This document shows, piece by piece, positions 21,996-62,954 of a DNA stretch of 64,000 nucleotides. The notes below the pieces were generated by a model. The model searched no databases. It had not been told where the DNA came from and saw only the letters and a list, made by a program, of their open reading frames with translations. The stretch covers positions 1-64,000 of the forward strand of contig JBJCIZ010000046.1 of assembly GCA_051294375.1 (NCBI GenBank). The letters run 5' to 3'. A program made the position numbers and the translations under genes. Origin of the DNA: Paraspadella gotoi. Lineage: Eukaryota > Animalia > Chaetognatha. Every line of letters begins with the position of its first letter. The first letter of the stretch is position 1.

Positions 21996-21996
21996 T

Positions 21997-23830: not shown

Positions 23831-23836
23831 CTTTAG

Positions 23837-30479: not shown

Positions 30480-30688
30480 AATTTTCTTGTCTCGTTAATT
30501 CATTCATTCGTTCTTTCATCTATTGGTCAATCTCATCTCATCGTAATTTGGCTTGTTTGTTTTCAGTTGTTTGTTTTGTCCGCTAGCAAACTTTTAATAT
30601 TTTTGTAAAATACCTAAACTTTTGCTGGGGGCCATGATAGTGGTTAATTGATTTGATTAGCAAATTATGTTTGATGACATAAAACGAA

Positions 30689-30785
30689 AATAAACATACT
30701 AACTAAATATGTATGTTTTGTAACATACAAACAAATAAACATGCTAACTAAATATGTATGTTTTGGAACATACAAACAAAAATAA
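30689..30785. repeat. ~44-bp tandem duplication between the convergent pol and antisense stop codons
   Basis: aaataaacat(a/g)ctaactaaatatgtatgttttg(t/g)aacatacaaac occurs twice; also present at ~55845-55945. Confidence 0.7.
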
Positions 30786-30823
30786 ACTATCTAAACTGGA
30801 AAAAAGAAAAAAAACACGCTACA

Positions 30824-32864: not shown

Positions 32865-33418
32865 ATCGTCAGTACATAGTCATGTTAGCGTCGCTATGGG
32901 CGTTGGCGTGGCACGAATCCGTCATCTTCCTGGACGGGTTGCCGTGGGATCGCGACCAGGGCCAATCCTTGGTGTAGATGGCACTGATGGTTTCTGATTG
33001 CAATTAATTTATTACCTTCCTTTTATCTGATTATATTGTACATTATAAAAATGGCGGGGACAATGATGGGGCTGCCTGCATGTCGAGGTTAGAAAAGGGA
33101 CTGAACAGCACATTTCTGACTTAATAGTGAGCTTCTACAGTACAGTAATGAATTGATAGAGACACGTTATTACCTGAAAAATTTTGACAAATTGGAAAAG
33201 AGAGCTATATCGCGGGAGTTTTGCGCTTCTTTTGGGGATTGCAAATGCTTTTGCCACGGGTATTCATGTGGTTAATTCTAACATTCAATATAACACTTGA
33301 ACATAGGCTAAATTTAATTGGCAACTTTGTTGAAAAGTTTTTTTCAAATCAGGTTCAACTGAATGAAAATATAAACTTCTTGTCAGACAGGACATGTTTG
33401 GGGTGCATGTGAATCTTA
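32865..33418 (+). pseudogene. env: Family A env, 5' part, truncated
   Basis: Follows acceptor gttttgtttttttcacAG (32864); near-identical to 58022-58585. Confidence 0.7.
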
Positions 33419-38860: not shown

Positions 38861-39282
38861 ACTTATCATCATCGATGTCCTTAAATCTGGGTTAGGACAG
38901 TTTATTAAATATGTTTTGCTTATACATTTTATCCAAAACAAACAAATATCCTCTATTTTATTTATTCTCCTTCTCTCTCTCTCTCTCCACTCTCTCTCTC
39001 TCCTACATCCGTCCCTAGTTCTCCTATTGCAACCTTGCGACCATCTTTATCTTTTTAAGATTTGCTTTAACTGCATCGATTTTTTTCACACTTAATAATT
39101 AATTAATTAATTAATTAAAACATTTATTAGTAATCCATTAATATCTAAAGATTCAATTTGTAAAATGTGACTTATGTTTCTTNNNNNNNNNNNNNNNNNN
39201 NNNNNNNNNNNNNNNNNNNNNNNNNNNNNNNNNNNNNNNNNNNNNNNNNNNNNNNNNNNNNNNNNNNNNNNNNNNNNNNNNN

Positions 39283-42200
39283 GCCTATGTCCAAACTGGA
39301 TCTCATGAGGAGACATTTCTGTCTTCCAGCCTATGATGGGCGTGGCGTTCAGCAGCAACATTAAGTGAGGGAGGTGATCCAGCCATTTTCTCGGTTGGTC
39401 CTCAACAGCTTTACGGAGGGCTTGACGTATTCTGCCGATGTCCCTCTCTGCCCTATTACTGTCCTTTCTCCCAACTAAGACTCTTCTGCCAACTGTGTCG
39501 AGCAGGTCCAGTATGGAGCTCATTGCCTTTCCGTTTAGTTGTGTTGCGCCATCAAAGTTAACTTCCATATAAGAGCCGTGCTGGAGGAAGATCCTTTCAT
39601 CTAGTGCTTTCACGATCGTTTNNNNNNNNNNGCGGCGTAGTGGGATAGCCCACGTGTATGCAGATGCATTGTCAGATGCAACTAAGGCATAGTTAAATCC
39701 AGCTACTGGGGGAAGATGCATTACATCGATGCTCAGTGATTCCCATGGAGTGATGGCTAAATTTGGAGCTGACGGAGTTTCATTGTTTCTCTGTGCATCA
39801 GTAGCTTTTGCGCAGTTATCACAGTTTCTTACACATCTTGCTGCGGCGGCCGATAACCCTGGTGCTGTGACATATTGAGCTGATATAAATGCTGTGCGAT
39901 CGCGGCCGGGGTGTCCATAATGTTGATGTATTTTTCTTATTATCTCTTCGATTCTACTAGGTGGAACAACGAACTTTGTGGTTGGGTTATCTGCTTTATA
40001 ACCTTTTAATATCANNNNNNNNNNTTCAGTTATGTCAAGATCAGCGAGGACGTTTGTAAGGTACTTTTCGGTTAAAGTCTTTCTTTTTTGCATTTTTTCA
40101 TTTAGCATTCTCTCGGCGTTAGCCCGGTCATTTTGTTGCAAGGCCTTTATGACGATTTTGAATACCTCGTCTTCCTGTTGCCATTGTCTAACGTGTGTCG
40201 CTAATGGCATGAGTTTTATTTCTATCTTGTCAGGATTCGCTGCTTCCTCTGCTATTTCTGGGGCTGAGGCGTCGACGTCTGCCTCCATTGTGCTGTCGAT
40301 CATTAACTCTTCTTTTGCGCCGGGCCATTTCGATTGAATTGTTTGCACTGAGGCTTGTTGAGTTGTTGTGATTGGCGTTGGTGGCGTTCTTGCGTCGTTT
40401 GGTTCTGGCATCTCTACATGGACTAAGTCCTCTGGCAACGCCTCCCAGCGATGGCTGGCGATCTTTTGTTTCTTTGGTCTTCCTCTCAGCTCTGGTTTTC
40501 TCAGATTCTCTACGCTGATTGTCTGGATGTTCTCATTTGCTGGGCGTATGAGAGGCGTGTCGGATTTTCGCGACTGATGAGACTGACTTGTCCAGTTATG
40601 GTTCTAAATATTTTTATTCGTCGACGTGGTCGGTCGGTCCGTATGTCTTTCAAACTTACACCCGGCCTCTCGTGTCGAGTCCTCTTCCATCATTGTGATT
40701 GCGATGCCTGTCATTTCGCCTAACATTTCAGTTCTGGATGGCCTAAACTCCAGTCTTAGGCAGATATTGTTCTGACGAAGGCGTCAGCGTCCTTCGTCTT
40801 TGGTTTCCCATACAACTTTTCTATGTTCTTTTGATTGATGCAAATTTTTGTCGTACAAATTCGAAAAACTTTGTTCTGAAAGCTTTTTGTTCCTCTCCCA
40901 GTGTTTGGGCCACCAAGGCAAGAGTGGGTGCATGGCCTGTTATTAAATCTAGATGTTCTGGGGTCACGTGATCTTGTACTGGGTTTTCGGCAAATCCTGG
41001 TTCATAATCGCCGTCGACATCGAAGCCGGCGGGGAAAAAAATGGGTGTCGAGGGGTGTGACCTGTCCTTGCTCAGTGAATCGTGTTAAGAAGTCGGCCGG
41101 ATTGTCTTCGCTTTTCACTAGGATAATTTCTTTGGTTGGCATTCTTGCCGGATTTCCGTTATCCATCTTAAGACGTTTGTCGGGAGCATTTGTTGTCGGT
41201 CATGCTGTAGATCATCTTTACTCTTTTAAAGTATTGGGAATCAGTTACTAAGGTCACCCTTCTCCGCACGTGTACCCTTGAACTTTCGCACCATCATGTT
41301 AAAGGCCAGGGTTTCTAAAGACATTGATGTGCTTTGATCGGTATTCTTCGGGGAATGATTGAGTGAAATGAGAGCGGATATTCGACGCCGTCGGCTGTGG
41401 CGGTGATTAATCCGCCCATGGCGCTGGTACTAGCGTCCGCGTAAATTCGATAGAACCATTCTTGATTCTGGCATCATAAAAAGTTTAACTGGGCAAGCCT
41501 TGATTTCGTCAACAAGGGTTGGAGCATCTCGATTGTGTTCGGAGAGCTTGAAATCTTTTCTTGTCGGTAAGGTTAGGGCATGAAGGGGTTGGGCGATGTA
41601 AGAAAATCGATGCGTAAAGCATCTGTATAGTTTAAGGAAGCTAGCATTGCTCTTAGTTCCTTTTGCGTTTTGAGAGCTTAGCTTTAACTCGACTGCTTGA
41701 AGCTTTTCTTTTTGTGGGAGGAGCCTGCTTTTGGAGATGCTGAACCCAGTATCTTGATGTCTTCCTTTCTGAGGAGGACACTCTTCTTCCCATTTGAGGA
41801 CGACGTTTTCGTCTCGGCATCTCTGCAGTAGATCTCTGAGTCTCTGTGCCATGTCTTCGGGTGACTTGGCTGTGAGTATGANNNNNNNNNNNNNNNNNNN
41901 NNNNNNNNNNNNNNNNNNNNNNNNNNNNNNNNNNNNNNNNNNNNNNNNNNNNNNNNNNNNNNNNNNNNNNNNNNNNNNNNNNNNNNNNNNNNNNNNNNNN
42001 NNNNNNNNNNNNNNNNNNNNNNNNNNNNNNNNNNNNNNNNNNNNNNNNNNNNNNNNNNNNNNNNNNNNNNNNNNNNNNNNNNNNNNNNNNNNNNNNNNNN
42101 NNNNNNNNNNNNNNNNNNNNNNNNNNNNNNNNNNNNNNNNNNNNNNNNNNNNNNNNNNNNNNNNNNNNNNNNNNNNNNNNNNNNNNNNNNNNNNNNNNNN

Positions 42201-43694
42201 NNNNNNNNNNNNNNNNNNNNNNNNNNGGTGGAAACATGCCAGAATGTCGACGGAACATTGCAGTTCATGTGGCTTGTATTGCTCAAGGATTGAGGAGATT
42301 GTCTGTGGTTCCGTGGCGTATGNNNNNNNNNNNNNNNNNNNNNNNNNNNNNNNNNNNNNNNNNNNNNNNNNNNNNNNNNNNNNNNNNNNNNNNNNNNNNN
42401 NNNNNNNNNNNNNNNNNNNNNNNNNNNNNNNNNNNNNNNNNNNNNNNNNNNNNNNNNNNNNNNNNNNNNNNNNNNNNNNNNNNNNNNNNNNNNNNNNNNN
42501 NNNNNNNNNNNNNNNNNNNNNNNNNNNNNNNNNNNNNNNNNNNNNNNNNNNNNNNNNNNNNNNNNNNNNNNNNNNNNNNNNNNNNNNNNNNNNNNNNNNN
42601 NNNNNNNNNNNNNNNNNNNNNNNNNNNNNNNNNNNNNNNNNNNNNNNNNNNNNNNNNNNNNNNNNNNNNNNNNNNNNNNCCCACACAATTTCCCAGACTA
42701 GGTGAGCCTTGTCTTGGAGAGACGGGTCTACGTCTTTGAAGGGTTTTAGGAATGCTTCCTTTCCGCTGGTGCGTCATGTTTTTGGCGCCTGTCTTGGCCT
42801 GGCTTCTCCTCGACTGCTTTGATCTCTTCTTTCCGTTGGTTTTGTGATGAACTATCTAGTCGTGGCGGGGATATGGTCTTTTCTCACTTCCTGGTACGGG
42901 TTTTTCCTGTTAAGTCGCCGCCTGGACTGGGTTCGGCTGTGGATCCTGTTTCAAGTCCTAGTTCGGATCTTGCCTGATTGGTTATTAGAGGTTCTTGCCT
43001 GTGCCCCAGGGTCCTGGATGGGCGTACAAATTCAACTCCTTCTCTCAGTTGGTCCCGTCTGCGACGATGTGCTTCTCTCCATTCCTGGACTCGATTATCC
43101 ACCTGGTACTGGCCAGGGTTTTCCAATATGGTTTATAGTGGAGGTTAGTATGATCCTTCCCTCCGCGTTTTGTTCGCGTGAATCGGCCACCATGTGTGTG
43201 TTCATCCACGTTTTCCCGAGCAGCAACCATCTGGCAGCCTTCAAGGCCTCGTATTTGTCTCGGAACAAGTGGGTTACGGGCTTTTTCCCATGGAGGCGAC
43301 CTGGAGGTCGTGTCTTTGGTTAGATGGTTGTACTACCCACAATTGGTCTGGAGGCCCGGGGTTGGTGACTGCCGTTCCTATGATGATGTCGTCTGATCAT
43401 TCCTCATCCGCGGAGATACAACGTTTTTAGGGTCCATTTTTGGAACATGATTCTTAAGTTTATTCTTCTGGTGAGAGTGATGGTTCCAGTGGCTGTTGAC
43501 AGCCTGAGAGGGGTTCCGTGGTAAATGTGTTTCGACAAGGCCCATTTTTCGATGAACTTTCGTGGGACAGTGTTTACGGATGCCCCTGTATCATACAGGC
43601 AGCTTGCTGGTGCTCCTGCGATTACAGCTGGAATGTAGCTGTTTTTCCTCTGTGTGACATATTTTTGCGGTGTCGTCTCTGGGCTCAGGTCCAC
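39283..43694 (-). pseudogene. pol: Family B pol (frameshifted, gapped)
   Basis: DTG protease; VDILACFH and ILTAKSPEDMAQRL (RT); HQHYGHPG..CDNC, SIDVM, NFDGA, RAERDI (integrase). Confidence 0.85.
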
Positions 43695-43699
43695 TTTTT

Positions 43700-45934
43700 C
43701 CTTTAATGATGTTTGTTAGATTTTCGGGTAAGATTGGGCATCTCCTTTTCATCTTTGGTAGTGTCGGGGTATTGGTTGAGGTGACAAAAAATGTTCAGCT
43801 GGTGGCACTCTAATTCCACTCGCCTGATTGGTCGCCTGGTGGAGAGATTCGCCATTTTGTTCTCCAGCAATGATTTCGTAAGTAGGATTGTTTTTATCCC
43901 TGCTGGCCGGAGCTTCCTTTAGGGAAGGCTTACCCTGTCGCTTCGTCGGGTTGGGCCTACTTTTTCGCCTTTGCTGGGCTTTAGTTGGTTTGTTCTACTA
44001 GGATATTTTTGGTTGAGATTCCTGGTTGGGTTTGGTCCGGATGGCTTTTCTAAATAATTTAGCACAGGTTTTCGATCTTTTTATGATCGCCCTTTTTCCT
44101 GCTTGGTCAGCTTTACTCCAATCCGCCCAGCCCAGTTTATGGAGAAATTTGTTGGCGAGGGCGATCTCTCCTGCACCCAGGGGTTTAAGTAATTTATACA
44201 TCCTAGAAGCAGTTGATTTGCCTCTCAATCTGTTGGCCGTATTGGCTAATTCTTTGACTTTGTTTCTATCTTCGTCCTTCACTCGCTGTGTGTCCTCTCT
44301 CATCACCTTTTCTCCAAGGTTTTTATAAGAGTCTTTTAGAATTTGGTCTGTGCTGTTACTTTATCTTTCTACTCTCCTATGGTTTTTATTCCAACGCGGA
44401 TATAAGAATCATCTTTATTTACATCAAAGTCATCAGCGGAGTCAGTATTAAACTCATTAGTTACATCAACAATATCCCGTCTCTTTCCAAAGTGTGGAGC
44501 TTTCTTCCCTCTTTTTTCGTCGCGCCATCCTACTTTTTTTTTGTTTTTCCAGTCGCGGCTTTTGTCGAACCTCCTTTCGTCAGTTACGGCTGGGGCTGGG
44601 CGATCGCGGCGTTCATTAGCGGGCGATCCGGTTGGCGACTCCGTTTGGTTGGGAGGGCGCACCGTGCGCTGTCTAAGTCCTCTCTTCCAGTTCCTTTATC
44701 TTTTCATTTCATGTTGTTCATTTCCTGAAGAACAGTTCCTTGGTAAGGGCCGTGGCACTGTACCGGGTCTTCTATCCGTTTGCCTCTTTGGACGAGCGCA
44801 TTAATGAGCTTTTCTTTGTCGTCATCGGACACGGTCCTTATGATTTTCCTTATGGAGTTGTCGGCCGTTTTCTTTAAATATCCCCGGCAATTTATATTCA
44901 ATTGCTTTGCCGAGACGGCGGGTTTCGCCCTCTCTCGAGCATTGGGTCCATTCTAGCGTCTCCGACGTTATCCCTGGTACATTAGGGTTCCATAGCTTCC
45001 ACCAGCATCTGGGCAACGTAGTCCGGTATTGATGCTCTGTCCTTTTCTCTTACCGCCTCGAAGTTTTCTTTCGCGGCATTGACGAGGCCGAGGCCATATT
45101 TGGCATGGACCTGCGGGTCCACCTCGATCTTTGCTTCGGCGAGAGCCTCCGCGATGCTGACCGAGGAGCCCTCGCACAACGCGCGCAGTCCCAACCACAT
45201 GGATTGGTTGATGGGTTCAAGAACCTGTTCGCGGACCTTGTCTCGCGCAAGGAGGGCCCGAAGTTGCTTGGTCAACCTTGTCCGGCGAAGGGGAGTCTAT
45301 GAAGGCCTCGTAGAAGCTACAAAAAATCTCCGAGATTCTCCTCCTCTTTTCCAGTTTAATGGGCTGCTCGACGGGCGTATATAGGACGGCGGATCGCTTC
45401 TTCCGCTTTCCGAAGGGATTCCTCTGGTGTTGAAAGCCTTTTACTTAGAGTTTGGCTGGCAAAAGGCCCAGTTTGAGGGTTGACCGGCTGCAGCGGCGGC
45501 GGCGAGGGCGGCCGGCTGGGGTAGAGGTTAGATGCGTGGCGATGGAGTCTAGAGCTAGATGCGTCAGTCGTGTGTTGACGTCACGGCCGTTGTCGCGGGA
45601 CATCATGACTTTCATCATTTGATGAATTTCATCCATTTTTGTGCCGAAGCTTCGTCTCGGTTATCGTCGAATTTTTTTATTCATTCGTGCGTAGTTTTGG
45701 TCATTTTTTAAATTCGCACTGTTTATTAACGTAAGGATTTGGCGTGTCACTTTCCGCTTGATTCGTCTCCAATTGGCATTGCTCTAAGAGAGCTCCCGTG
45801 AGTTCGAACGTATGGTAGTCGAGATCCTGCGTGGCTGCTACCGTCTTCATTTGTTGCGGTGCCTGTGGCTGGCTTTGCGGCCCCTTTCTCCAGCCGGCTT
45901 TGGCTGGGGGAATAGTTGGGGCTGGGGAATCCAT
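43700..45934 (-). pseudogene. gag: Probable family B gag (fragmented ORFs)
   Basis: Run of - strand ORF fragments between the PBS and the protease; called by position only. Confidence 0.55.
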
Positions 45935-46006
45935 CTTTCCTTGAGGGGTGGGCGTGGTCGTTGTTTTGGTAAGGCTTGATTCTTCTTTTCTTGGAGAAGT
46001 GGGGTG

Positions 46007-46378: not shown

Positions 46379-48998
46379 CTCAAATTTAATCATAAAAAAG
46401 GCGACGACGACAACGACGCCACTTATGTGCAAAATCGCAGGAAAATTGTCGCAATCGCGAGTTGCGTTGAGTGGCTACAGGGGAGTCATTGTGCGGACGT
46501 GGTGGAGACGGGGCCTCCACCACGCTTTTGATTTCACTTTTTCACTTTTCAATTTTTCACACTTTGTTATTTATTAATAGTTAATTGTTAAAAATATTTA
46601 TTTCACCTTTAGTTTCAACAATTTATCTTTGTTGTACATTACAAAAAATGTATTATCTTTCAAATGTTCTCTCTATTTCTCTCTCTCTCTCAATTTTTCA
46701 CCATTTAGTTTCTTTTCGCAATCTAGCTCATTCTGTCCTCACTTTAACCTGTCCTCACATCTGACCACTATTCTTCTCTCAACTCAACTTTGCCCTCTCT
46801 CTCTTTTTCTCTCTCTCTCTCTTTTCCATTGCACAAACTTTGTTTGAAATTTCACAAACATCTTTGACGCCGATGAAGGCTTGTACAATTAAACCCGAAA
46901 CATGTCCGTCTTACTAGTGCCTGAATCTAGATTCAGATTTTCAAAAAACTTTCAAAATATGATCAGAACCATATTTAATGGAAATTAGATACACAGCCGG
47001 AAGGTCAAGTATGCTCCAAAGGTTAGTAATAAAAATCGAGTTACTCGAATATGCAATTGAGATTAATGCGTCATCGTAAGGTTGAATATAAGGCAAAAAA
47101 GAGCATAAACATTTTAATAATAACAATTTTTTAAAAAAACAATTAATAAATATGTTTTAATTTGTTTTGATAGTTCTGAGAGCTTATTTATTAAATGAAT
47201 GGATAATTTTTATATTAGTTGTACCAATTTTATAAAATTCAGCTCCTTGTATTTTGATGCTGAGTGAAGTACAATAAAGTATTCCCCGATCTAATATTTA
47301 AGGGAGTGGTCTTTTCATACAATTGAAATATTTTTTGAAACATTATATCACTTCATTGATGGGAAGCCAGGTATTCTGGGAGTGAATAAACGAGACAGTG
47401 AAAGAGTTTTGATTGAAAGCTTGCAGGGACCTGTAAGAGTGATGGAGGCCTTAAACCACCAAAGTCTGTCCAAAATCAGGGGCAAGATAGCTCATTTATT
47501 AAATGAATGAATAATTTTTATATTGGTTGTACCAATTTCATATTATAAACACTTTTAATAGGGAAAAGTAATTGACTCTTTTTGACGAAAACTAACTTCT
47601 TCTTTTTCGATTTTTGTACCAATCGACTTTGTCGTCTTATAACTTTCGATTTTACTGGGACTTGTACCAATCGCTTTATCATTTAATAAGCTTTATTTTA
47701 TGTATCTATATCTTTGTAAAATTCAGCCATTTAATACGGTTTTTTTCGATGTAAAAAAGTGGGGTTTTTTTCGCCATAGTGTACAAGATAATGACAGAGC
47801 AGTTCCTTGCAAGCATTTAATCAAGACTCTTTCACACACTCGTTTATTCATTCCCACAATATAATTTTGACATAATTGTATTTGCAAGTACAAAAAGTAT
47901 ATTTTTTGCCAAATACTTTGACTTATTTTTTAATATATTATCAGAGGTAAAAGAAATAACAAGAATAAAAGTTTTTTTCTGAAAACATATAAGAAATATA
48001 GAGAGAGACTAAGAGAGAGAGAGAGGGAGAGAGAGAGAGAGAAAGACACAGATTGAGCCAAAAGTATGATTTTTAGATATAGGCTAGAGCTCCCAGAAAT
48101 ACCATGCATAGGAGTCTACGTCGTTCTTAGAAATCGAGGAAGACTTTTTCAATGGAGATTTTCGCTAAAATCTGACTACCAAACAATGTAAACGCCCCTG
48201 GGAAAAATTCAAAGAAAAAATAGATGTAAAAACACTCGATTCCGATCCTGTTGCATCTGAAGGGCTCGCATTTTTTTTCTCTTGACAAATAATCATCATT
48301 TTGACATCAAACCATCAGATTCAAATAGATTGGTCCGCTCTGGAGAATATTTTTGACGCGATTTTTATATATAAAATAAAGGGATTTCTCAACTTCAATA
48401 CAATGTTAACGCATTTAATATATGTTGTGATTTTACCATAAACTTCGAATTCAGGAATCCAATAACCATATGTCTGAAGGGCTCTCAAAATTTTTCTTTA
48501 CATTTTATTTGGTTATTTTGATATGATATGATCATGGGAAAGTGAATTAGTACATTTTGGTGAAATTTTTATTTAAAGTAAAAGTAAAAGAGGAGCTAAC
48601 GATCGGAATTCTAAGAGTTTTTAACCGAGAGTCAGATTCGGGAAAAATCTTCTATGGCGAAAATTTTCCAAAGAAGGGGTGGATTTTCCGAAGATTTTAG
48701 TTAATATTTTCTATATTTATGGTAGGATTTTTTTGAAACTTAATATTAACAATATTGCCATCATTCTGGTATAAGAATATATTAAAAAAACCTCTGGCTT
48801 TGTTCGTCAGAGCTTAGTCCTACCATGCATTTTAGAAAGTTCCGGAAGTGGTTCGACGCAAAAACTAGCGTGGAAAATCCATAATGAGCGTCCAGAAAAA
48901 AATTTTTATTGTGATTTTCGTTTTCTCCACTAAATTTGGCACAAGAAACTTTGCAGGTATCAGGAACTTTCATAAATGTATGATATTTTGGGAGGTCT

Positions 48999-49267
48999 AC
49001 TACAGGCGCCTCAACGCAGTCACAAAAGACAACCGCTTCCCCATCAAAAATTTGATGGATTTCAATGCACATGTCCCAGGCAAAACAATTTTTTCAAAAG
49101 TAGACCTTTGTAAAGGCTACCATCAAGTACCTGTAGCAGAGCAGGATATTTGCAAAACAGCCGTCATAACTCCTTTTGGCTCTTGGGAATTCCCGTTCAC
49201 CCCATTTGGTCTCAAGAATGCAGGTCCTGATTTTCAAAGGATGATGGACGAAGCCTTCAAAGATGTA
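48999..49267 (+). pseudogene. pol: Isolated RT fragment of family C, inverted relative to the nearby element
   Basis: YRRLNAVTKDNRFPIKNL...FQRMMDEA, nearly identical to the reverse complement of ~51939-52207. Confidence 0.9.
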
Positions 49268-49429
49268 GTAGTATATACTGGACAGTGAGATAGACATAAC
49301 TTTAGTAGGGCGATTTTTGACCACAGTACTGGGTATTAGTGGCCGGAGTGAGGGGGGGTGGTGGGTATAGTAGTAAGTATTAGTGTCCGGAGAGCAAGGG
49401 GGTGTGTAGCGGCGTGGAGTGAGGATTTG

Positions 49430-50524: not shown

Positions 50525-51650
50525 ATGAGAATTTTTTCTCTTGTCCTCGGCCGGGGATGTCCACTGTGAAGGTCTTGTCATCTCTTAAGACTACTTTGTA
50601 AGGGCCCAAGTAGGGCATAGCTAGCGAGTGGCCCTGTTGGCCGCGGAGCACAAAAACCCAGTTTGCTGAGGCAAGACTGTGAGGAAGATGAACAGGTGGG
50701 TTTGAGTGCCAATTAGGAACTACTGGTCTGAACAATGCAACGTCGTGTCTCAAGTTTTGCAGCTCGTTTTGGGCATTTGCCTGGGATTGCTATTGTATCT
50801 CCGAATACAAGTTTTGCAGGTGATGCTTGTAGGTCTTCTTTTGGTGCGGACCTGAGTCCTAATAAGACCCAGGGTAGTTGATTGAACCAGTTTGCGCCGG
50901 ACGCATCACAACGCGCTTTCAATGATGCCTTCATGGTACGGTGAAACCGTTCGACTATCCCGTTCGCCTGTGGGTGGTAAGCTGTGGTGGTGTTGAGCTT
51001 GTAGCCTATAGCTTGGATCAGCTGATGCCACAATTCAGAAGTGAATTGTGTTCCACGGTCGGAAGTGACCGTGGCTGGTACACCGAATCTGGCGATCCAG
51101 TTCTGAAGGAAGGCTGTTGCTACGGTTACTGCGGAGATATCCCGAAGGGGATATGCTTCAGGCCAACGAGAAAAACGGTCTACACAGGTTAAAAGGTACG
51201 TGTAACCGCCTGAGGTGGGCAAGGGACCCACCAATTCAATGTGAATGTGTTCGAAACTCCTCAATGGTGCTTCGAAAGGTTGTAGTGGAGCCTGGGTGTG
51301 TCGTTGTACCTTGCTGCGCTGGCAGTCAAGGCAGGCCTGAGCCCATTTTGCCACGTCTGACGCGGCTTTTGGCCAAACAAATCTTTTTGTTACCAGCTTT
51401 TTTGTGCATCTGACACTCGGGTGAGCTAGGTTGTGGATGGCATCATAAACTCGACGGCGCCAAGTTGTGGGAACCAAGGGGCGCGCCCTGCCTGAACTGA
51501 TATCGCAGATGATGTCAAAGTCATTCAGGCGAACTATCTTGAATCGCAGGCTGGTGTGGGCGTCCGCCAGGAGTCGCTGGATCTCCTTGTCGGATCTTTG
51601 GTCGCCGGCTAAGGCAGCAAAATCGACGCCTTGGGGGCCAACTGCATTGA
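50525..51650 (-). pseudogene. pol: Family C integrase
   Basis: IHNLAHP..CLDC; HIELVGPL (first catalytic D appears as E); SDRGTQF; GIVERFH; PYLGPYKV after a frameshift. Confidence 0.88.
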
Positions 51651-52830
51651 CCGTTGGTAGTAGTTGAGCATGCCCAAGTATCTTTGAACCTCTTTGACTG
51701 ATGTTGGCTGTGGGAATTGTTTGATGTGTTCGACTTTTGTGTCCAATGGCCTGACGCCTGTTGCGTCTACCTGGTAACCAAGAAAGTCGAGTGATGGTAC
51801 GCCCAGTACGCATTTTGCCCTGTTCACTACTAAACCATTTGCTTGCAGGGTGTCAAACAGTAGTGTGAGATCTTGCATGTGTTCTTCTTTGTTGCTTGAG
51901 GCGACCAGGATGTCATCTAGATATACAAAGATGTGTGGTACATCTTTGAGGGCTTCGTCCATCATCCTTTGAAAATCAGGACCTGCATTCTTGAGGCCAA
52001 ATGGTGTGAATGGGAATTCCCAAGAGCCAAAGGGAGTGATGACGGCTGTCTTGCAAATATCCTGCTCTGCTACAGGTACTTGATGGTAGCCTTTACAAAG
52101 ATCTACTTTTGAAAAAATTGTTTTGCCTGCGACATGGGCATTGAAATCCATCAAATTTTTGATGGGGTAGCGGTTGTCTTTTGTGACTGCGTTGAGGCGC
52201 CTGTAGTCGCCGCAACATCTGAGTGAGCCATCAGGTTTTTTGACCACATGTAGTGGTGATGCCCAAGCACTCTTGCTCTTCCTTATAATGCCCAGCTTCT
52301 CCATTTTTGCAAATTCTTCTTTGGCTGCTTTGAGTTTGTCAGGCGCAAGTCGGCGTGCTTGGGAATGGACAGGCGGACCCTCGGTTGGAATGTGGTGTTC
52401 TACACCATGCTTGGTCTTCGAAGGGTCAAATCTGAGTTGTGTGAGTTCTGGGCGTTCGTCAATCAATTTGAAATAGGCATTATTGACTGTATTGACTCTG
52501 AAAGGCCTGTCCAGATAAGATTTGCCTGTGATTGTTGAAAAATCGTCAAGATCGACGAGTAGGCCGAGCTTGTGGTCGGCGGCTAAATGATGCTCCATCA
52601 GAAAATCAGCTCCAAGGATAGGGGTCGTAACGTCAGCAAGTACAGTTGTTAGTGTGTATGTGCGTCTTCCTAGTCTGATAGTGATTTGTTTGGTGTCGTA
52701 GGAAGAGATTGCAGACCCGTTTGCAGCAGGAAGTTGAGGCGCGGAGCCACCGCGGAGCTTTTCTGATGGAAGGTGCCATCAAAGTGACGCTTGCACCACG
52801 TTCCACAAGCCATGTCATGTTGTATGTTGT
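51651..52830 (-). pseudogene. pol: Family C protease remnant and reverse transcriptase
   Basis: WASPLHVVKK, GDYRRLN, KVDLCKGYHQ, PFGLKNA, YLDD, YLGMLNYY. Confidence 0.92.
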
Positions 52831-52899
52831 TCATACACGTGCAGTAAGGGTTCTATACTAACAGCAGCGGCGTTTACTGCCTCCGGCTGCTGGCTTGGC

Positions 52900-54293
52900 C
52901 GTTTCCCCGCTTGCATCCTGGGTAGCATTTGATGCTGGTCTCAAATGTCCTGTGATAGAAACAAGTCCGTACGAGATCAGGAGAGGAGTTAAAGGCATTT
53001 GAGGCTGGTCCGTGGTTTAGTTAGGGCATGCTGGCTGCCTGGGGCGCAGTTGGCCACGCGTGGAGGTCGCGGCACACACGTTGGCGTATGTGCGTGGAGC
53101 CTTATCTTCTGTGGAAGATGTATCATCCGCCAATTTGGGCGCATAATCCTCTGTCTCCGAGTCCGATAGGTCGTCCTCAAAGATGCCCCATCTGTTGGAG
53201 GTGTCGAGGTAATTGACGACTTTTCCAACTGGTTTTGAGACGATCTGAAGATCGCCTTGGGTGGAATAAAATGTGTCGGCCTTTTTGGCGATCGCCTCCG
53301 GCGTCTCGTCCCCGTCACTAACTACCCTTCCAGCCACATGGGCCGGGAGGACCTCGGCAAGGATCGCGTTGAGGATGTGGTCGATCTTGAGGGATTCGAC
53401 CTCTGCACGCAGTGCGGCCACAAACTGCAGGGAGTGCGTCCTTGGAGGAGTGATGTCCTAGGAGCCTTTGCGCCTTTTGCCGGGGCTTTTCGGCAAACAA
53501 CTCGTTAAGCTGTTTTTTCAGAGTTTGGTAACAGCCGGACACAGGGTGATCATCGGTATAAAAACCTCTGATCAGTACCTGATGCTCCTGCGGAATCGCA
53601 CTGAGAAGGTACAGCTTTTTGAGTTGTTCGTCATGAACTGAAGCGAGGCGGAAACTCCCCTTGACTGCAGCAAGCCAGGCTCGGATGTTGCTGACATCGA
53701 AAAGGCGCAACTTTGGCGTCTTCGAACGGCTGGTGGCTTGCGTCTCCAGATCCATCGGGGTTTGCGTGAGGGAGGAGGCTCCCATCGGCTGACGTCTCCT
53801 GGATGAGCTTGACCTGCATATTGACACATACGTTGGCCGATGGTACCTGTCGGCCTTGGTGCTTCCTGTAGTGACCGCTGAGCTTCCACTAGCTTTTGGA
53901 TTTCTCTTGTGAGGTGTTGGATAGAGCTTATGATGCTTTCATTTACTCTGCCTTGTTTTGCTTCCACTCCTTGATCCGGTTGCTGAACGACGTCAATAAC
54001 CCATTTGATGACCCTTGTGCGGTCGCACTTGATCCGACATTGGGTCGAGGGGGTGTGGCCAGGACTTTGGGCCTGGTCTGTGCCGGGTCGCCGCGCGGTG
54101 TCTGAAATGCGGCGTTGTCGAACTGCTCTGGTGATGGTGGCGCTGATGAAACCGGGGTGGCGGTGGAGATGGTGATAGGGGTGGTGGGGTGGCGTCCTCC
54201 ATACGGCGTCGCTTGAGGTTCCCGCAGAAGGTGAGGTCGAGGCGCGGCGTCCTCCACGTCCAGCAGGGGCTTCCATGTCCAACAGGTGTTCAT
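52900..54293 (-). pseudogene. gag: Family C gag (frameshifted)
   Basis: ORF fragments 53943-54293, 53318-53827 and 53017-53421; capsid-like RAWLAAVKGSF; C-x2-H start of a CsRn1-type CHCC motif at ~52960. Confidence 0.7.
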
Positions 54294-54944
54294 GATGGTT
54301 GTGTAGAATGTTGGCTAAAAATTTGGCTGTAAAAAATACTAATTCTGTGCCAAACAGAAAGATCAAAAATTTTTCAATCTTTTTAATCAAGAGAAAAATC
54401 CGAAAGAAAAATTTTCGCGTAATCGTTTATAGAATTAGAGCTAGCAAAATTCTCTGATGAAAATTGTTTAATACGGCGCGGTAAAATGAAAAACGCGTTG
54501 GCGAGACAGTTTTTTACATTACCGTAGGTTAAGTTTAATGAAAGTTTATTTAAACTTAGAGCTAATTTTTAAATTTTCTAAAATAAAAAAGGATAAAAAT
54601 CGATTAGGGTTAGTATCGAATTTCAAAATTAAAACAAATACAAAATCGTTGAGCTTTGATGCAGTAATCCGGGTAGGTGATGCAAAATGTTGGACGTTGG
54701 AAAAACGAAATGTAGGACGCGCGCGACTGAGAACAAATAGAAATTGCGAAAATTTTTGAAGTTTTTAAAATTTTTGAAGAAAAATGCGTTGATCGCGAAA
54801 TAGGCCGTGAAACTGAGTGAATCTTTTTCACTAATTAAACCTCCTATTTAATGACTGATGAATAAAATAATCGATCAATCACTTGATCAATCAAATCATA
54901 AATCAATTGAAAAAAAAAAGATTCAGAAGGTTACTTATCTTTTA

Positions 54945-54957
54945 GTCGGGATCACCA
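54945..54957 (-). promoter_or_regulatory. Primer-binding site, tRNA-Trp-like
   Basis: TGGTGATCCCGAC, one base after an LTR-like ..CGACA end; close to the complement of the tRNA-Trp 3' end (TGGTGACCCCGAC). Confidence 0.75.
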
Positions 54958-54958
54958 A

Positions 54959-55300
54959 TGTCGAAGACGAAGAATGTAATAATAAATATATATGCGATTT
55001 TATTCGAATACAATGAGGTTGATTCAGTACAATCATCATCAACAAACAAACAAACAAGAAGAGAGAGTGAAGAATTGTGACGATGTAAGAGAAGTAGAAA
55101 AGAAGTGAGACTAGCTATCTCCTGATCCACTTTTATCATCGCCCGGACCAACTTGACCTTACGGTCGCCTCGGCCCTATTATTGTGTCCGGTCAATCTAA
55201 GGTCATTGCCAAAGCTAGGGCAAAGTGACCGTGTGGAATAGACCGGCTCGAAGAAAGAGGAGAGAGGAAGGGTTTAGAGAGAGAGACCGGTGGTAAGTCG
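54959..55300 (-). mobile_element. Probable 5' LTR of family C (outer end unclear)
   Basis: Ends in CA next to the PBS; AATAAA at ~55000 on the - strand; abuts family A copy 3. Confidence 0.6.
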
Positions 55301-55982
55301 CTTCAATGTTTATATTGATACTAAATCTGCACGAATCCGCGAGTTGGAAGATTTTGCGGGTGACGACGTTTTTCGTTCAAAAAAGTTAAATGAATTGGGC
55401 GACGATAAAGAACAAGTTGAAGATGCTGGTTTGAAAAACGTAAGATTAAAATTAAATGGAGATTTCTCGGAAGTAAAAGCAGCTGATTCTGCTGCGTCGC
55501 AGCGTCGTGATGTTTCAACGGACAGAGCAAGGATCGGGAGTCTGGCGAAAACAAAAGACGCGGCTCGTAATCGGTATGAGTTGAGGCCTCGAAAACATGT
55601 TAATTATAAAATCTAAAATTTTCTTGTCTCATTATTCATTTGTTTCTTTAATTCATTCATTCATTCTCTCATTTAATCAATTGTCCATCTCATCTCATCG
55701 TGATTTGGCTTGTTTGTTTTTAGTTGTTTGTTTTGTCCGCTAGCAAACTTTTAATATTTTTGTAAAATACCTAAACTTTTGCTGGGGGCCATGATAGAGG
55801 TTAATTTATTAGATTAGCAAACTATGTTTGATGACATAAAACGAAAATAAACATACTAACTATATATGTGTATGTTTTGAAGCATACAAACAAATAAACA
55901 TGCTAACTAAATATGTATGTTTTGGAACATACAAACAAAAATAAACTATCTAAACTGGAAAAAAGAAAAAAAACATGCTTCA

Positions 55983-57184
55983 TTAAGTGACATTGAGTTC
56001 GACGGCGACAAGGAGATCGGCGACGACATGGACGACATCGGCGTCGGTTTGGTCGTCGTCGTCGTAGTCGCAAGGTAGGCGACGAAAGTCGATGAGGATC
56101 GGGAGCCCGTCCCCATCGATGATATGGTGAAATTCATACTGGAAAAGTAAAGACAAAAAAAATTTGTACTGAAAAACAGAATTAAAATTTAATATTAAAG
56201 TCGGAAAACTCTGATTGGGCGACTTTGATATAGATTCACTTACGCTCGCAACGTCAGAAGTAGGCGAGGGCGGCATCAGTGGCGATGGCGGCGGCGAAGG
56301 CGTAGTGGAGCGAGACCGTCATTGGCAATGGCTGCTGCTGCGATTGCTGCTTCTGCGGCTGTAGCGCCTCTTGCGGTCGAGGTGGCGTCCGAGACGGCGA
56401 CGTAGGAATAGTTTGTAGACTGGAATATTAATTGCGGTTATATAAATATATAAAAGGAATCAAAATTCTTAGTATTATATTTTAATAAAAAGGACAGAAA
56501 ACCGGACTTTTTATTTAAAACTAACAGAATCAGAGCATCATCAGAATGAGGATGACGACGACGATTGCCAGGGAGATGCCGGCCAACGAAAATGACGCTG
56601 GAGCGACGACGCCAGCCATAGTGGGCCTTGCTGCCCTTGTTAGCAGAATGGGCGTCGTTGTTATTCTTGTTGTTGTTGTTGTCGACGTGGCCCTTGTTGG
56701 CAGAAAAAATTTTGGCGACAATTTCGTCGTCGTCGTCGTCAACGTTTTCGTCACGGATGGAATTGACGTTGATACCGAGACATTTGTTGTCGTGGTAGTA
56801 GTTGTCGTTTCACTGATTGGAAAATCAACAATGAAGGCGTTAAAGTTAAGTAAACTGGTTGGTTGTAAACCATTTACAAAATATTGCCCGAAAATGAAAA
56901 TGTGCGCTCTAGAAAATCGAAATTGAAGAGAGAAGAGGTATCGACCTTGATTGATTTTTTCCAGTGGTTGTCTCCACATTCATCGAGTCGACAATGGACC
57001 CTGAGCGGGACGATGGGCCCTTTGGATGACGCGTTGGGAGGCGTACGGAGCCTTGCGTCGGCGTTGCCATGGTACGCCCCCGACCGCTAAGTTGGTTAAT
57101 GAGGCGGGCGTTGCCATTGGTGGGCGTCGTAAGATCTGACATCGGATTAGGAAGGCGAAATTTGGGTGAGACAGCGTCAGACAT
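55983..57184 (-). pseudogene. Family A antisense spliced gene, copy 3; exons 57184-56946, 56908-56526, 56419-56244, 56138-55983
   Basis: Same splice sites as copy 2; introns 37, 106 and 105 nt; a CGA>TGA stop at 56530-56532. Confidence 0.75.
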
Positions 57185-58021
57185 TGTGCACGTTAGTACA
57201 GACCCTGGTGTTCAGGCTCGGCCAACATCACTGTGGCGATGAAAGTTGCGTCGCCCGTACGAACCAGAGTGCAAGTTGGATGTGTGACCGGACTGAAACT
57301 GAGATGGTGCTGGTGCACAAGGCAAAAGTCTTATGTAGCTACTCTGGTACAAGGTGAGCCCTGGAGCGAATTCACTCAGTGCTTGGCGTTTGCGGTCATT
57401 GGAAGCGGCGAAATCTCCGTGTGTACAATTTTAGATTTGGAATTTTGACGGAAAATATTTTTTGAGGGAAAAAATATTGTTGCAACTTACAAAGTTTGAT
57501 TATTATTAAAAAAATATATAAAATAATAATACTAGAAATTTGGTGGAAAGAAGTTACTTACTTTTTGTGTTGGGCACCATTTTCGTCGTTGATCACTTGT
57601 GAGAGTGGATCAGTTTGTGGCTGGGAGGAAAACCAAGTGAAGCCCGCTTTGCTAGTGACCTTAACTTACCTAACCTTTGTTTTCTTTAGCCGAGGCCGAC
57701 GGTGGTCAGAGATTTCGTTCTGTGACGCGGTGAAAAAAGTTGTCGACAAACATTGAAAAAATAAAAATAAATAAAAAACGAAATATTTCGTTGTTGGGTT
57801 TTTAAGCAGAGAGCTGGTGATTTGAGGGGGAACAAAAGCCTGGGGGCCAGGTTAGCTGAGTTCAGAATCTATTGTTAAGTTGAGGGAGAAGAAGAGCCCG
57901 TCTGTGGATGAAGTAATGAAATTTAGTTAGTTTCCTAAGTTGTTCTGAAACGATGAGTGTTGTTAGTGAAACAATAGCATCGTGTACGATTTTAGGATAG
58001 AACGTTTTGTTTTTTTCACAG

Positions 58022-59660
58022 ATCGTCAAGTACATAGTCATGTTAGCGTCGCTCATGGGCGTTGGCGTGGCACGAATCCGTCATCTTCCTGGACGGAGTT
58101 GCCGTGGGATCGCGACCAGTGGCCAATCCCTTGGTGTAGATGGCACTGATGGGTTTCTGATTGCAATTAATTTATTACCTTCCTTTTATCTGATTATATT
58201 GTACATTATAAAAATGGCGGGGACAATGATGGGGCTGCCTGCATGTCGAGGTTAGAAAAGGGACTGAACAGCACATTTGCTGACTTACATAGTGAGCTTT
58301 ACAGTACAGTAATGAATTGAAGAGACACGTTATTACCTGAAAAATTTTGACAAATTGGAAAAGAGAGCATATCGGCGGGAGTTTTGCGCTTCTTTTGGGG
58401 ATTGCAAATGCTTTTGCCACGGGTATTCATGTGGTTAATTCTAACATTCAATATAACCATCTTGAACATAGGCTAAATTTAATTGGCAACTTTGTTGAAA
58501 AAGTTTTTTCAAATCAGGTTCAACTGAATGAAAATTAAACTTCTGTCAGACAGTCAGGACATGTTTGGGGTGCATGTGAATCTTATGGAAGGCATGTCAA
58601 TCATCTTAAGGTATTACACTCTTGTGATGTACTTGAGGTTGGCGCTCATGTAATAGCGGGAAGGCTTGTTTCTGATGGTTCGCGATAAAGAGTGCTGTGT
58701 ATGGACGTATTGACGCATGAGCTACTTGACTATGACCATTTACGGGATTTGACTACGAATGATGTTTTGCAGGAAACTATCTTTCAGGTTAGCCCAAGCA
58801 TGTTATATGATTACGCTAGGATTGACATGATTTCTTATGCTGACGGTAATTTATTATTATTGTGTAATTTTCCTAGAATAACTAAAGAATATGTTTTTAA
58901 TGTTTTTCAATTGCTGCAAAGCCCTGTTGAAATACAGTTTGAAGAAAGTAATGACGGAAGAGTTTTTTAATTCTTGACAACTAAAGATGTTTCTCTAGAT
59001 GATTTAACTACAGGGAATGTTACATTTTATTCATCTTCAAGCTGTATAACGAATAACCGAAGTTAGAGCTTGCCCAGGTGGGCCATCTGTTATTAACATA
59101 TGTTCAGTATTTTTACATTCGTTACTTATGAAATGAGGGCCTGCAGCAGTGAATTGTCATGTTAAACATATAAGCTTGATGAAAAGGTTATTCTATAAAT
59201 GTTCATGGGGAGTCATGCTGTATTAGATTTTGAATATTTGTTTAACTGATTTAATACAACTGATTTCCTGTCATTCATGAAATTGTCTATTCAGAAATAC
59301 AGATCATCACTCATGTGTTTTTTTGACCCCTGATCCCAATGTTTCATTGTTGTCTGAATCTGAAGGTATTATACATTGTTTTCTCCTATGCCTATGTTAC
59401 TTATGATCATCCGAAATTGAATGTTATTTTGAATTTTTCACATATTGTAAATTTATCTTTGCCAACTTGATTCGTCTCATGTTTTTAAACCAATTGTGTT
59501 TCCGGATACCAAAATTTTTCATAAATTCGAAGAACGGAACTGGTTATATGGTAATTTCATTGTTTGTCATTATTGGGTTTCTCTTCATTGTCGTTGCTTA
59601 TCTTGTTTATTACGTTAAATTAGAACTATTCGTGTGAGAGTCGGAAGTATCCTACTGGTG
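58022..59660 (+). pseudogene. env: Envelope-like glycoprotein, probable class I (F-type) fusion protein; frameshifted
   Basis: Acceptor tttttttcacAG at 58021; hydrophobic N-terminus; EKR followed by a fusion-peptide-like ALLLGIANAFATGI and a heptad-like segment; Cys-containing region; TM YMVISLFVIIGFLFIVVAYLVYY (~59545-59613). Fold is inferred. Confidence 0.7.
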
Positions 59661-59679: not shown

Positions 59680-60005
59680 GGGCCATATAATTTGAAATGG
59701 ATAAATATGAAATATGGTTTAATGAAAAGATTTAGGCTGTTAATCGTACCAGCAGCCTTCATGGTTAGCGCGTGGCGTTGCTGGATTGGAGTAGCTTCAT
59801 TAACTAGTATAAAAGCGGCCCCTCAAGCGCTATCTTTTGCTCCATCCTCTCTCCGCGCTCATCTTCTGCCTACAAGCTCCTGCCTCTCACACGGTAAGTG
59901 ACCCCAAACCGTACATTCTCTATTTACATATACTATGAGCTAGAAGATATTCATTGGACTCTAATGGTTCACGTTGCTAGTAAGTTAGACTATCTATTAT
60001 TTACT
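59680..60005 (+). promoter_or_regulatory. Candidate 3' LTR of family A
   Basis: Last segment shared with copy 1 (2300-2650, which ends ..TACA); ATTGG ~59785, TATAAAAG 59808, donor G|GTAAGT 59894. No 5' LTR in the window to confirm. Confidence 0.45.
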
Positions 60006-60163: not shown

Positions 60164-60462
60164 ATCTTGCGAGTGCCTGCCTGCGACCCCTGCCTCCCCC
60201 CTCCTCCTCCTCCTTGATCCCTCTGCGGAAGGCTCGGACGGTCAGACCTACGCTTCCCAGTGCGAGATGCGCCAGCGGCTTGCGTCGCTCTCAAGCGCGT
60301 CGTTGTTACAGTCCGGGAAGGTGCGAGAGACCGGATATAATCGAGGAGGTGGAGGCTTCCCGGATCCGAGCGACGGAGTGGCGACAGCGGTCTCGGCTCC
60401 GGCGACGGGCGCGACGGCGTCGACGACGAGGACAATACGTTTTGCGATGACGACAATTGCAG
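60164..60462 (+). CDS. AGRN: Agrin exon: Kazal/follistatin domain plus Ser-Gly acidic linker (apparent indels)
   Basis: Acceptor cctgttctcAG; GSDGQTYASQCEMRQ; SGDSGLGSGDGRDGVDDEDNTFCDDDNC; phase-compatible with the next exon. Confidence 0.75.
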
Positions 60463-61755
60463 GTGGTGGAGATGGAAATAGGAAATGAGTTTGCGGTTGA
60501 TCTTTTTTCGTCAGAATCATTTTATCTTAAATCTCATTATCTATAGTATTTTTGAAGAGGCGGCCTTAGAGGTTAGTTGAGAGTTTTTGTGTCTAATTAT
60601 GCTTGAGGATGTAGTTGACCGATTTTCCTTGATATTGAGCAATGCAGAGGCTTTCGAGTGACTAAAAAGGTTTAATTGTGGAGGAGCCTCGCTAACTTCT
60701 TTGTCGACTGAAAGAGGCGTTGAGTTCGAATGAAGTTTTTTTTTTTCTCAGTGCGATAATAATTAACAGAACAGAGGATAAGAAATCTATCTTGACGTCA
60801 CTTTTTTCAAAAGCTTTTAAGAAAACGTAATTTTTGAATTAAAACTGTACATTTTTTTACTCGAATCTCCAGAAAAATCTTTTAATTTTAATATTTTATA
60901 ATAGCGGTTAATACGTCTCATCTGCCGTCCTTTTCAGCTTTTCAACGGAAATTCGATTACAGTTTTTTTTTCTTCTTAAAAATATTAATAAAATAAAAAA
61001 AAAAACTTGTTCAACTCATCTTCCCTTGTTTGCTTTGCCTTAAGATTCTAAGCTTGAATTTCCAGTGCCGATTTTAAAAAAATCCCAACTTTTTTTATAG
61101 TCCTGTATTAGCTTTTACTGACTTTTCCCTCTTTTTTTTTTACCTACCGTAAGCCATTACACGTTTTACTTTCCGCCGCAACTCGGTGCAATCATCCTTT
61201 TGCCAGCCAACCCTCCATTTCTCTTTAAATCCCCGCCCAAAAAAATCTCATTCTCCTTCGATAGTTTTTTTTTTTTTCTCGGAAAAGTCTGTTCTTACGG
61301 CTTCTCTTCTTCTTCCTTCCCGTTTAAGAGAATCGAACCATTAGTTTTCATTCTTTTCCATTTTTTATCTCTCATTCTCTTATCGTTTACGTTTTCTTCC
61401 TTTTGATTTGTTTTATCTTAATTCTTTCTAGTTTCAAATTTGTTTCTAAACTCTTAGTAAATAAGGATTTACTATTTTTTTTACTACTAAGGTAACTCAA
61501 ATCTTCTAGAGACAAGACGGCGAAGAGAACGAACGAGCGAAATACGAGAAGACTTCGACGTCGTCTTTTACTTTATCAAACTTTTTGGGTAGTACATCGT
61601 TCCCTCCATAGATACGCCATGTTTTAACAACGCATATATGGCGTGAAGTCCATCGGATCTTCCTTTATTTTCTTTCCTCGTAGCACTCATGATTAATTAC
61701 CTCCATCCCTTCGATTTTCCCCCTCGCCCAACTTCTTCCCGAAAATCCTATCCAG

Positions 61756-61988
61756 ATTCGGCGGCATCTGCGAGCGTCGCCGCGGACGCGTCGCCTGCAC
61801 CTGCGACTTCGACTGCATCGAGAACTTCGGGCGGCGCGTGTGCGGCACCGACGGGCGGGTGCATCGCAGCAGCTGCCACATGCGCGAACGAAGCTGCCGC
61901 AGACAACGAGAGATCGTGGAACAGGATATGGCGCTGTGTCGGAGGGCGGGGGACGAGGACGACGAAGATGGGGACGATGAAGATGGAG
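61756..61988 (+). CDS. AGRN: Agrin exon: follistatin/Kazal domain
   Basis: tccAG|..FGGICERRRGRVACTCDFDCIENFGRRVCGTDGRVHRSSCHMRERSC..|GTGAG; open frame, phases 2 and 1. Confidence 0.88.
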
Positions 61989-62104
61989 GTGAGAGAGAGA
62001 GAGAGAGAGAGAGATAATATTGTTTGTTTTAAAAATGAAAAGATGGCCGAGGATCTCGTTCACATTCTTCTTTTCTTTCTCACCTTTCCTCCCCTTTCCT
62101 CCAG

Positions 62105-62296
62105 CACCCCCCACCCCTAAACCTCCTTTCCGCGCCGACTGCGCCGCGTCCCGCTTCGGCTGCTGCCCCGAGGACGGTCTCACACCGGCGCGCGGCCCTT
62201 CCGGCGCCGGATGCCCGCGCCATTGCGGCTGCAACAAACTCGGCGCCTACGACGCCACCTGCGATCCTTCGACGCGACAGTGCTCCTGCAAACCGG
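62105..62296 (+). CDS. AGRN: Agrin exon: Cys-rich linker and first laminin-type EGF domain
   Basis: CAASRFGCCPEDGLTPARGPSGAGCPRHCGCNKLGAYDATCDPSTRQCSCKPG matches the agrin C..YGCC.D....A.G....GCP..C.CN..G....CDP..GQCSC.PG pattern; AG/GTGAG borders. Confidence 0.92.
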
Positions 62297-62954
62297 GTGA
62301 GGAGGAGCGATTCAATGTAAAGTAAGGTTGACCCTCATTTGTTTAGTTTTAATAATGTTAACGTTTATAAATTGTGGTTTCTTAAATTCATAATTTTTTT
62401 AAAAAAATGCGGACATGTTTCTTCATCAGCGCGTAATTAGACTTAAAAAAAATAGTGTCGTAACCTGTCCCTTTTTTTGATAAATAAGCCCGTTCTTAGT
62501 AAACAAATAGACTTTGTTTTCTCTCTAACTTAAAACGCAACGAAAAGAAAGTCTTAACACAAGTACTTCAGGTAGAATTTCTGTAAACAGCGTCATTGCG
62601 GCAGACTTATGTTTTACGTAACTTTTGCCAAATAAGTTGTCTGAGAGCTTCATTCGAATCGAGGCGTGTATTATCGATAAATCGCTTTGTCGCTTTGTAT
62701 TTTTCTTTGTCGCTTTCTTCGCTGTTGTCCTTTTCGATCGCCGTCTGAAAGGTTTTACGTCATTGATTTCTTACGTAAGCGATCCAAGTTTATTTTCTTC
62801 TACGAATGACTGGAGTTTTATAGTTTACTATTCGCCATTCGATTCTCTTTTGTTTTCTTTGCGGATTTTCGTTTTTCTTCGTCTCAATCGCATCCCCGCC
62901 GAGACGACAAGAGGTCTTGCGCTCATAAATCGAGCAGAGAAAAAACCATTTTGA

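Follow-up and report, generated by a model that had tools for sequence, protein, structure and literature searches.

The question raised by this locus is whether the stretch at 58021–59640 (forward strand) is a real class I, F-type envelope gene (env) of a Gypsy retrotransposon, as a sequence-only reading had proposed; as assembled, no continuous env open reading frame is present in any copy within the window (i.e., the whole 64-kb stretch of DNA that was analysed). The answer given here, with a probability of roughly 0.88, is that the proposal is right and that the element is a multi-copy Ty3/Gypsy LTR retrotransposon of an animal genome, whose env is a real one of class I, F type. Three lines of evidence support this: homology, the fold predicted for an intact relative, and the order gag–pol–spacer–env in the copy at 22.4–33.4 kb.

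The envelope locus and its protein relatives

The env stretch comprises a signal-like start, a basic site (KR) with a hydrophobic peptide, a coiled-coil region, cysteines and a C-terminal transmembrane (TM) segment. It is about 1.6 kb long and starts 2.4 kb 3′ of the pol stop (55616); the sequence-only reading had put it "~1.6 kb downstream of pol", which gave the length of the gene in place of the distance. Other features named in that reading are present: the hydrophobic N-terminus starts at 58022, the basic site EKR is at 58358, the Gly/Ala-rich hydrophobic peptide (ALLLGIANAFATGI) is at 58386, the cysteines are at 59043–59160 and the C-terminal TM segment is at 59548–59616. For the amphipathic heptad-like run the outcome was mixed: the run QYNHLEHRL is present and the profile of the family is periodic, its hydropathy having maxima at periods of 3.5 and 7, but taken on its own the quoted run shows no significant periodicity (p = 0.12).

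Read 5′ to 3′ on the forward strand, the gene opens with a signal-like region and an F2-like segment (58022–58360), which are split between frames and are matched by relatives in tblastn and profile searches at 58040–58186 and 58183–58305. Immediately 5′ of the signal region is a splice acceptor-like site (58008–58021), consisting of a pyrimidine tract and CAG, which is identical in the copy at 22400–33418 (copy C) and is found in the same arrangement and phase at the locus of the closest relative (L001). The basic cleavage site and the fusion-peptide-like hydrophobic segment (58358–58430) are followed by an F1-like ectodomain (58431–59450), for which conserved columns and models indicate a long helix resembling HRA, β-rich domains and conserved cysteines, and then by a membrane-proximal arm with proline (NLSLPT motif) and the TM segment (59450–59637). 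The N-terminus, EKR, the fusion peptide and the TM segment are in separate frames, and the main frame (58386–59330), through the ectodomain, has 8 stops in 315 codons.

When the env stretch, with its stops replaced by X, was searched exhaustively against 1.84 billion protein representatives, 38 relatives were found at E ≤ 0.001 (clusters at 50% identity), half of which (19) were at ≤ 1e-10; the best has an E-value of 4.4e-25 and 28% identity to the window env. Open frames of 450 or more amino acids (450–590 residues) are found in 25 of the 38, all of which end in a TM segment with a tail of 12–35 residues, and in each of these 25 full-length relatives an invariant Arg is followed by a hydrophobic segment of 22 residues (mean hydropathy 1.0–1.8). 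The strict form R-x-x-R is present in only nine of them and [RK]-x-[RK]-R in 14. A profile built from the natural relatives matches the env locus at E 4.5e-47, and the window env (58341–59090) retains 19 of the 25 columns that are conserved in at least 80% of relatives. Ten relative clusters were looked up, and their source was ENA/Logan assemblies, in which the proteins are without names.

Searches of Pfam and of PDB sequences with the window env gave no match, none of the 38 relatives reached a Pfam cut-off, and none had a PDB sequence match at cut-off. The Gypsy env profile PF07253 was likewise reached by 0/38 relatives and 0/4 readings of the window (best 16.8 bits against a cut-off of 27.5); one distant relative matched Pfam Gypsy env at E 0.0027, below the cut-off. 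A word-indexed protein search with the window env passed 0/1729 and 0/1503 candidates, three queries found no relative in viral contigs, and metagenome contigs gave no match to the window env; an alignment of three proteins found one locus in the metagenome contigs.

In the description given by Chary and Hayashi (PMC13524379), 1512 env-carrying Gypsy elements are distributed across metazoans, with env of F type and gB type, and the bdelloid element TelKA is described as having a paramyxovirus-F-like ORF3 (env) in a non-insect Gypsy clade (PMC5408684). Since F-type env genes in non-insect Gypsy elements have thus been published, the env family is a new F-type fusogen sequence family, missed by Pfam and PDB sequence searches, of an already published kind. 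The sequence-only reading had placed env outside the insect errantivirus layout; the layout is indeed non-insect, but the novelty implied was overstated (PMC13524379; PMC5408684). Compared by description only, the F-type "ancient errantiviruses" of PMC13524379 are similar in the order gag–pol–env, in an F-type env with a basic site, fusion peptide and TM segment, in being multi-copy and in having a non-insect layout, but they differ from the present element in that its spacer is 2.4 kb and its env about 530 amino acids. For the TelKA env, a full-length HHpred match to Pfam PF00523 is described (PMC5408684), whereas the family here has no Pfam match by hmmscan, the two methods differing in sensitivity. 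Lokiretroviruses have also been published (PMC7947760). The present family extends the published picture in that Pfam-dark F-type fusogens are now tied to Gypsy elements.

Predicted fold and a possible route into cells

The AF2 model of the closest intact relative (P0001; 25 sequences) has a pLDDT of 74 and a pTM of 0.55. The Foldseek comparison with F proteins that the sequence-only reading had suggested was run on this model and matched the F proteins of RSV (E 4.5e-12), hPIV3, NDV, Langya virus, Nipah virus and hMPV; 244 chains were at E ≤ 0.001, with TM-scores of only 0.25–0.35, and TM-scores across the solved-structure and viral-library matches were low as well (0.25–0.43). Among viral models the best matches were glycoproteins of insect mononegaviruses (Canya virus, 1.5e-16; Hubei rhabdo-like virus 3), and baculovirus F was matched at 1e-9. 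An independent aligner, run against 48,161 chains, gave hMPV F a Z of 12.6 (rmsd 7.9, 293 residues aligned), with viral F or Env proteins at all of ranks 1–14 and the first unrelated chain at Z 6.6. A herpesvirus gB type of env was considered and rejected, no gB being among the structural matches listed for this model. Further matches of the same model are to glycoproteins from a fish filovirus, abalone and frog herpesviruses and a fish epsilon-like retrovirus, which shows how widely the F fold is spread.

The partial model of the window env itself (250 residues) has a pLDDT of 75. Its top 10 Foldseek rows are RSV or hMPV F or foamy virus Env, with a best E of 0.041 and none at E ≤ 0.001, and its best Z with the independent aligner is 6.2, tied with generic coiled coils. 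Because this model gives no significant score, the assignment of fold rests on the closest relative and on homology, from which env is predicted to have the paramyxovirus/pneumovirus F fold. In comparison with the F proteins of RSV, hMPV, hPIV3, NDV and Nipah virus, the predicted fold, the order F2–cleavage site–fusion peptide–HRA, the size and the TM segment are alike, whereas identity is 8–15%, env here is carried by a retrotransposon, and the membrane-proximal arm is rich in proline. The fold class is also that of insect errantivirus env and baculovirus F, but the present element differs from insect errantiviruses in that its env has no Pfam match at cut-off level and its gag has CCHC-like knuckles. 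The gag of insect errantiviruses is not known to have CCHC knuckles.

In both models (closest relative and window) a long HRA-like helix follows the fusion peptide. A helical HRB preceding the TM segment was sought in residues 438–489 of the relative's model and no helix was predicted there, the pLDDT being below 50 at 443–475. In the 45 residues before the TM segment, the 25 relatives have 95 prolines in 1194 residues, compared with 0 in 1596 in the HRA region; two or more prolines are present in this segment in 24 of the 25, and an N-x-[TS]-x-P motif in 16, as in the window at 59450. The likeliest reading is that the proline-rich arm is an extended leash which replaces a helical HRB. The elements in PMC13524379 are described as having a helical C-terminal ectodomain segment in "most" cases, whereas none is predicted here. 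The finding would matter more if the arm were to show that the env family completes fusion without a helical HRB.

By analogy with known F proteins, the following route can be proposed. The env message would be spliced, and the signal peptide would begin in an upstream exon joined to the acceptor at 58021; a donor-like GTAAGT is present within the LTR-like end (59894). A furin-like protease would cut after KR, the freed hydrophobic peptide would enter the target membrane and the HRA region would form a trimeric coiled coil, as in known F proteins, while the proline-rich C-terminal arm may pack back along the coiled coil as an extended leash. In this way env would bring the particles of the element into other cells. 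Because the predicted fold of intact relatives resembles that of the RSV/measles type of cell-entry protein, it is likely, by analogy, that the element spreads between cells like a retrovirus, and infection of the germline from the soma would be plausible. Oikopleura Tor elements also carry env, and in the account given of them (PMC4402516) the env message of Tor3a is spliced and that of Tor3b/4b is transcribed from an internal promoter; on a comparison by description only, the spliced message of Tor3a can be set beside the acceptor-like site before env in the present element.

The Gypsy element, its copies and its reading frames

The order of the parts can be read from copy C (22400–33418, forward strand), which is free of N gaps. 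On one strand, in gag–pol–env order, it has gag (with two CCHC-like knuckles), the pol domains protease, RT, RNase H and integrase, and then the spacer and the 5′ part of env. Its gag matches zf-CCHC at E 0.013, below the cut-off, and its pol has a protease DTGA at 24011, an RT FIDD at 25678, RNase H (Pfam PF17919, E 4.4e-7, and also PF17917) and an integrase-like 3′ part. Among solved structures, its RT/RNase H matches Ty3 best (8.8e-8), with gammaretroviral (4e-6) and foamy virus (0.08) structures scoring less well; the N-terminal piece of RT and the integrase pieces had no database match. The pol of copy C is interrupted by an AT-rich insertion of 1.6 kb (25800–27417; no Pfam match in six frames), which is absent from the copy at 15.5–18.7 kb. 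A Cys-rich stretch (22350–22520, forward strand), within or upstream of the copy C gag, has no Pfam match, and we take it to resemble a ZZ finger.

Copy D, which carries the env under study, retains the 3′ end of pol (55303–55616, forward strand), i.e., the C-terminus of integrase, within an open frame at 55278–55616 that matches the pol end of copy C (30175–30490) at 96%; its 5′ side is cut by another Gypsy element. At the 3′ side of env is an LTR-like end (59700–60000, forward strand; left border approximate), with a TATA-like box at 59808 and the donor-like site at 59894, which has a 79% match to 2289–2706. Short-read contigs diverge from the window just past 59983, and copy D ends near 60000. 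Minor short-read contigs in three runs lack about 120 bases of the LTR-like end (59837–59957), a deletion variant. Copy A (2289–7922, reverse strand) comprises pol end, spacer, env (2289–4740) and LTR-like end, and is very noisy, with N gaps; a short env fragment (1–103, reverse strand), beside a gap of 25 N, has 0 mismatches in 101 aligned bases. The earlier count of four copies or fragments therefore holds, as the further pieces at 1–103, 2289–4740 and 32865–33418 are real by self-comparison. LTR-like ends are found only 3′, in two copies, and no 5′ LTR was matched within the window.

A different origin of env would be a negative-strand RNA virus (lispi- or chu-like) whose glycoprotein gene was endogenized, or a domesticated host gene, with env in either case merely lying beside Gypsy debris. 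The insect mononegavirus glycoproteins at the head of the viral-library matches would fit such an origin, as would a 2.4-kb gap to pol that exceeds the published errantivirus search filter. We nevertheless regard it as very improbable, as the pol end, spacer and env are linked in three copies, an LTR-like end follows env in two, no other viral gene was found near env (Pfam), and the env of the relative at L001 is also in an LTR-like context. At L001, a purine tract lies 3′ of env, together with a TG start, AATAAA, a TGG site and a frame of 385 amino acids. This frame (2077–3231 of L001, forward strand), 3′ of the LTR-like stretch, is rich in Pro, Thr and Ser and has a short C-terminal tandem repeat and no Pfam match; the layout may be env–LTR–gag, the frame being a possible start of gag.

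For an env of a Gypsy element, the state of the reading frames has to be explained, as those of gag, pol and env are all broken as assembled. The stops and frame changes in env are probably long-read errors for the most part, because the differences are dominated by gaps, are common to three studies against the window, and extend to an adjoining host exon. The whole env locus is covered by contigs from four public runs (three studies). One short-read contig of 2019 nt, spanning 57994–59655, differs from the window by 20 substitutions and 40 gaps, and 10 of the 11 env-region indels among those listed are present in all four runs. Between copies, over 549 bases, the env piece of copy C (32865–33418, forward strand) has 2 mismatches to copy D and 17 gap openings, and copy A differs from copy D in env by 72 mismatches and 230 gap openings. 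In the host exon (60165–60480), Kazal-like motifs are spread across three frames. Such a gap-dominated signature, from which long-read error is inferred, is no proof of an intact env gene.

A real, F-type env in a family that is dead, with breaks that are true mutations and no intact copy left, also has to be weighed. The 8 stops in 315 codons, the truncated or interrupted state of every copy in the window, and the absence of a synonymous bias in the substitutions between copies, even in the pol end (3/11), all speak for it, but the shared, gap-dominated differences and the like breakage of the host exon speak against it, as does the divergence of copies C and D, which is only 0.36% in env compared with 5.1% in the spacer; we consider a dead family unlikely. 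Slightly less credit is given to the view that the copies are largely assembly duplicates of a single locus. In favour of duplicates, the window has been assembled as a patched scaffold, with 18 N gaps (five of 25 N each), the env pieces are near-identical gaps aside, and there are tandem partial repeats at 12410–16546. Against them, 102 substitutions separate copies C and D over 2078 bases of pol and spacer, alternative spacer contigs occur in the short-read runs, and the flanks of copies A and D differ beyond the LTR-like end. The repeats at 12410–16546 (two noisy, partial copies that comprise pol end and spacer but lack env) are themselves probably an assembly duplicate or a truncated copy. 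The divergence between copies C and D is uneven: it is 3.6–5.1% in the pol end and most of the spacer versus 0.4–0.9% in env and the 590 bases 5′ of it (p = 1e-8), which suggests recombination between variants or a stronger constraint on env.

The pol–env spacer and the neighbouring sequences

The spacer between pol and env (55617–58020, 2.4 kb) is common to the copies (matches at 30490–32865, 4740–7480 and, in part, 12410–16546) and is covered by short-read contigs from three studies. On its reverse strand there are candidates for a spliced transcription unit. The candidate start (57562–57669) has an ATG flanked by donor-like GTAAGT sites at 57669 and 57561, with matching sites in copies D and C, and at 57561 also in copy A. 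A candidate exon at 56533–56909, behind an acceptor-like site, has a Thr-rich, mucin-like stretch leading into a TM segment (hydropathy 2.89) and a stop, and is open in both gap-free copies; a small acidic candidate exon (55986–56139; no Pfam match) lies behind a GTAAGT..CAG intron-like stretch (56243–56139). The candidate introns, with ends at 56945/56909, 57669/57621 and 56243/56139, are 37, 49 and 105 nt long. GTAAGT occurs 4 times on the reverse strand of the spacer compared with 0.3 expected (p = 0.003) and 0 times on the forward strand, and TTTYYAG 5 times compared with 1.3 expected (p = 0.02) and twice on the forward strand, both patterns having been picked after inspection; the spacer of copy C has a similar strand skew in both. 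A stricter acceptor pattern was not enriched in the spacer (p = 0.39).

Several results count against the candidates. The longest antisense frame is not in excess of shuffled sequences (149 versus 120 amino acids, p = 0.17), and a shadow frame on the forward strand is longer than in shuffles (p = 0.025). None of six frames shows a bias of spacer substitutions towards synonymous changes, a test which is uninformative here because pol has no such bias either. The mucin-like frame has no usable Atlas match, and its Thr runs coincide with triplet repeats. Contigs from one run (X9, taken to be RNA only by guess) have no joint listed at the candidate introns, which weighs neither way, and their depth falls about threefold near 57550, contig depth being unable to rank the parts.

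In complex vertebrate retroviruses, accessory genes are a characteristic feature. The candidates raise the tentative and rather doubtful prospect of a complex invertebrate retrovirus-like lineage, in which an F-type env with a proline-rich leash would be accompanied by intron-containing antisense accessory genes, one of them for a mucin-like membrane protein, which a bidirectional internal promoter near 57.7–58.0 kb would drive back-to-back with env. Captured host DNA accounts for the spacer equally well. Antisense genes are candidates here and none were noted in the Tor descriptions (PMC4402516); additional antisense ORFs have been published for plant elements (PMC7264820, PMC11963269). A narrow check of titles and the beginnings of abstracts found no animal element in which spliced genes lie antisense between pol and an env of F type. 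The finding would matter more if the antisense genes of the spacer were real. If they are, counts of such elements would be too low in any screen that asks for env at a short distance from pol; in PMC13524379 the main filter is given as a pol–env distance of 1000 nt outside insects, with a manual extension step of 3000–5000 nt.

Searches of the window for tRNAs and Rfam families gave no match. On the 3′ side of env, at 60165–62300 (forward strand), is a host gene that encodes Kazal and laminin-EGF domains and makes an animal host likely; about 170 bases separate the end of the element from one exon of this gene, which we take to be agrin-like. A search with its laminin-EGF exon passed 0/16 candidates. 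A third Gypsy-like family is represented by two copies (19502–22054 and 39107–46000, reverse strand), which are 69% identical and have matches to Integrase_H2C2 and RNase H; a profile of the env relatives found no F-type env behind them. On the 5′ side, a second Gypsy element (50700–55305, reverse strand), with matches to DUF7041, RT and integrase, abuts copy D at 55303 with its LTR-like end, and an RT fragment at 48869–49288 (forward strand) matches it. The many different short-read flanks of this second element suggest that it has many insertions.
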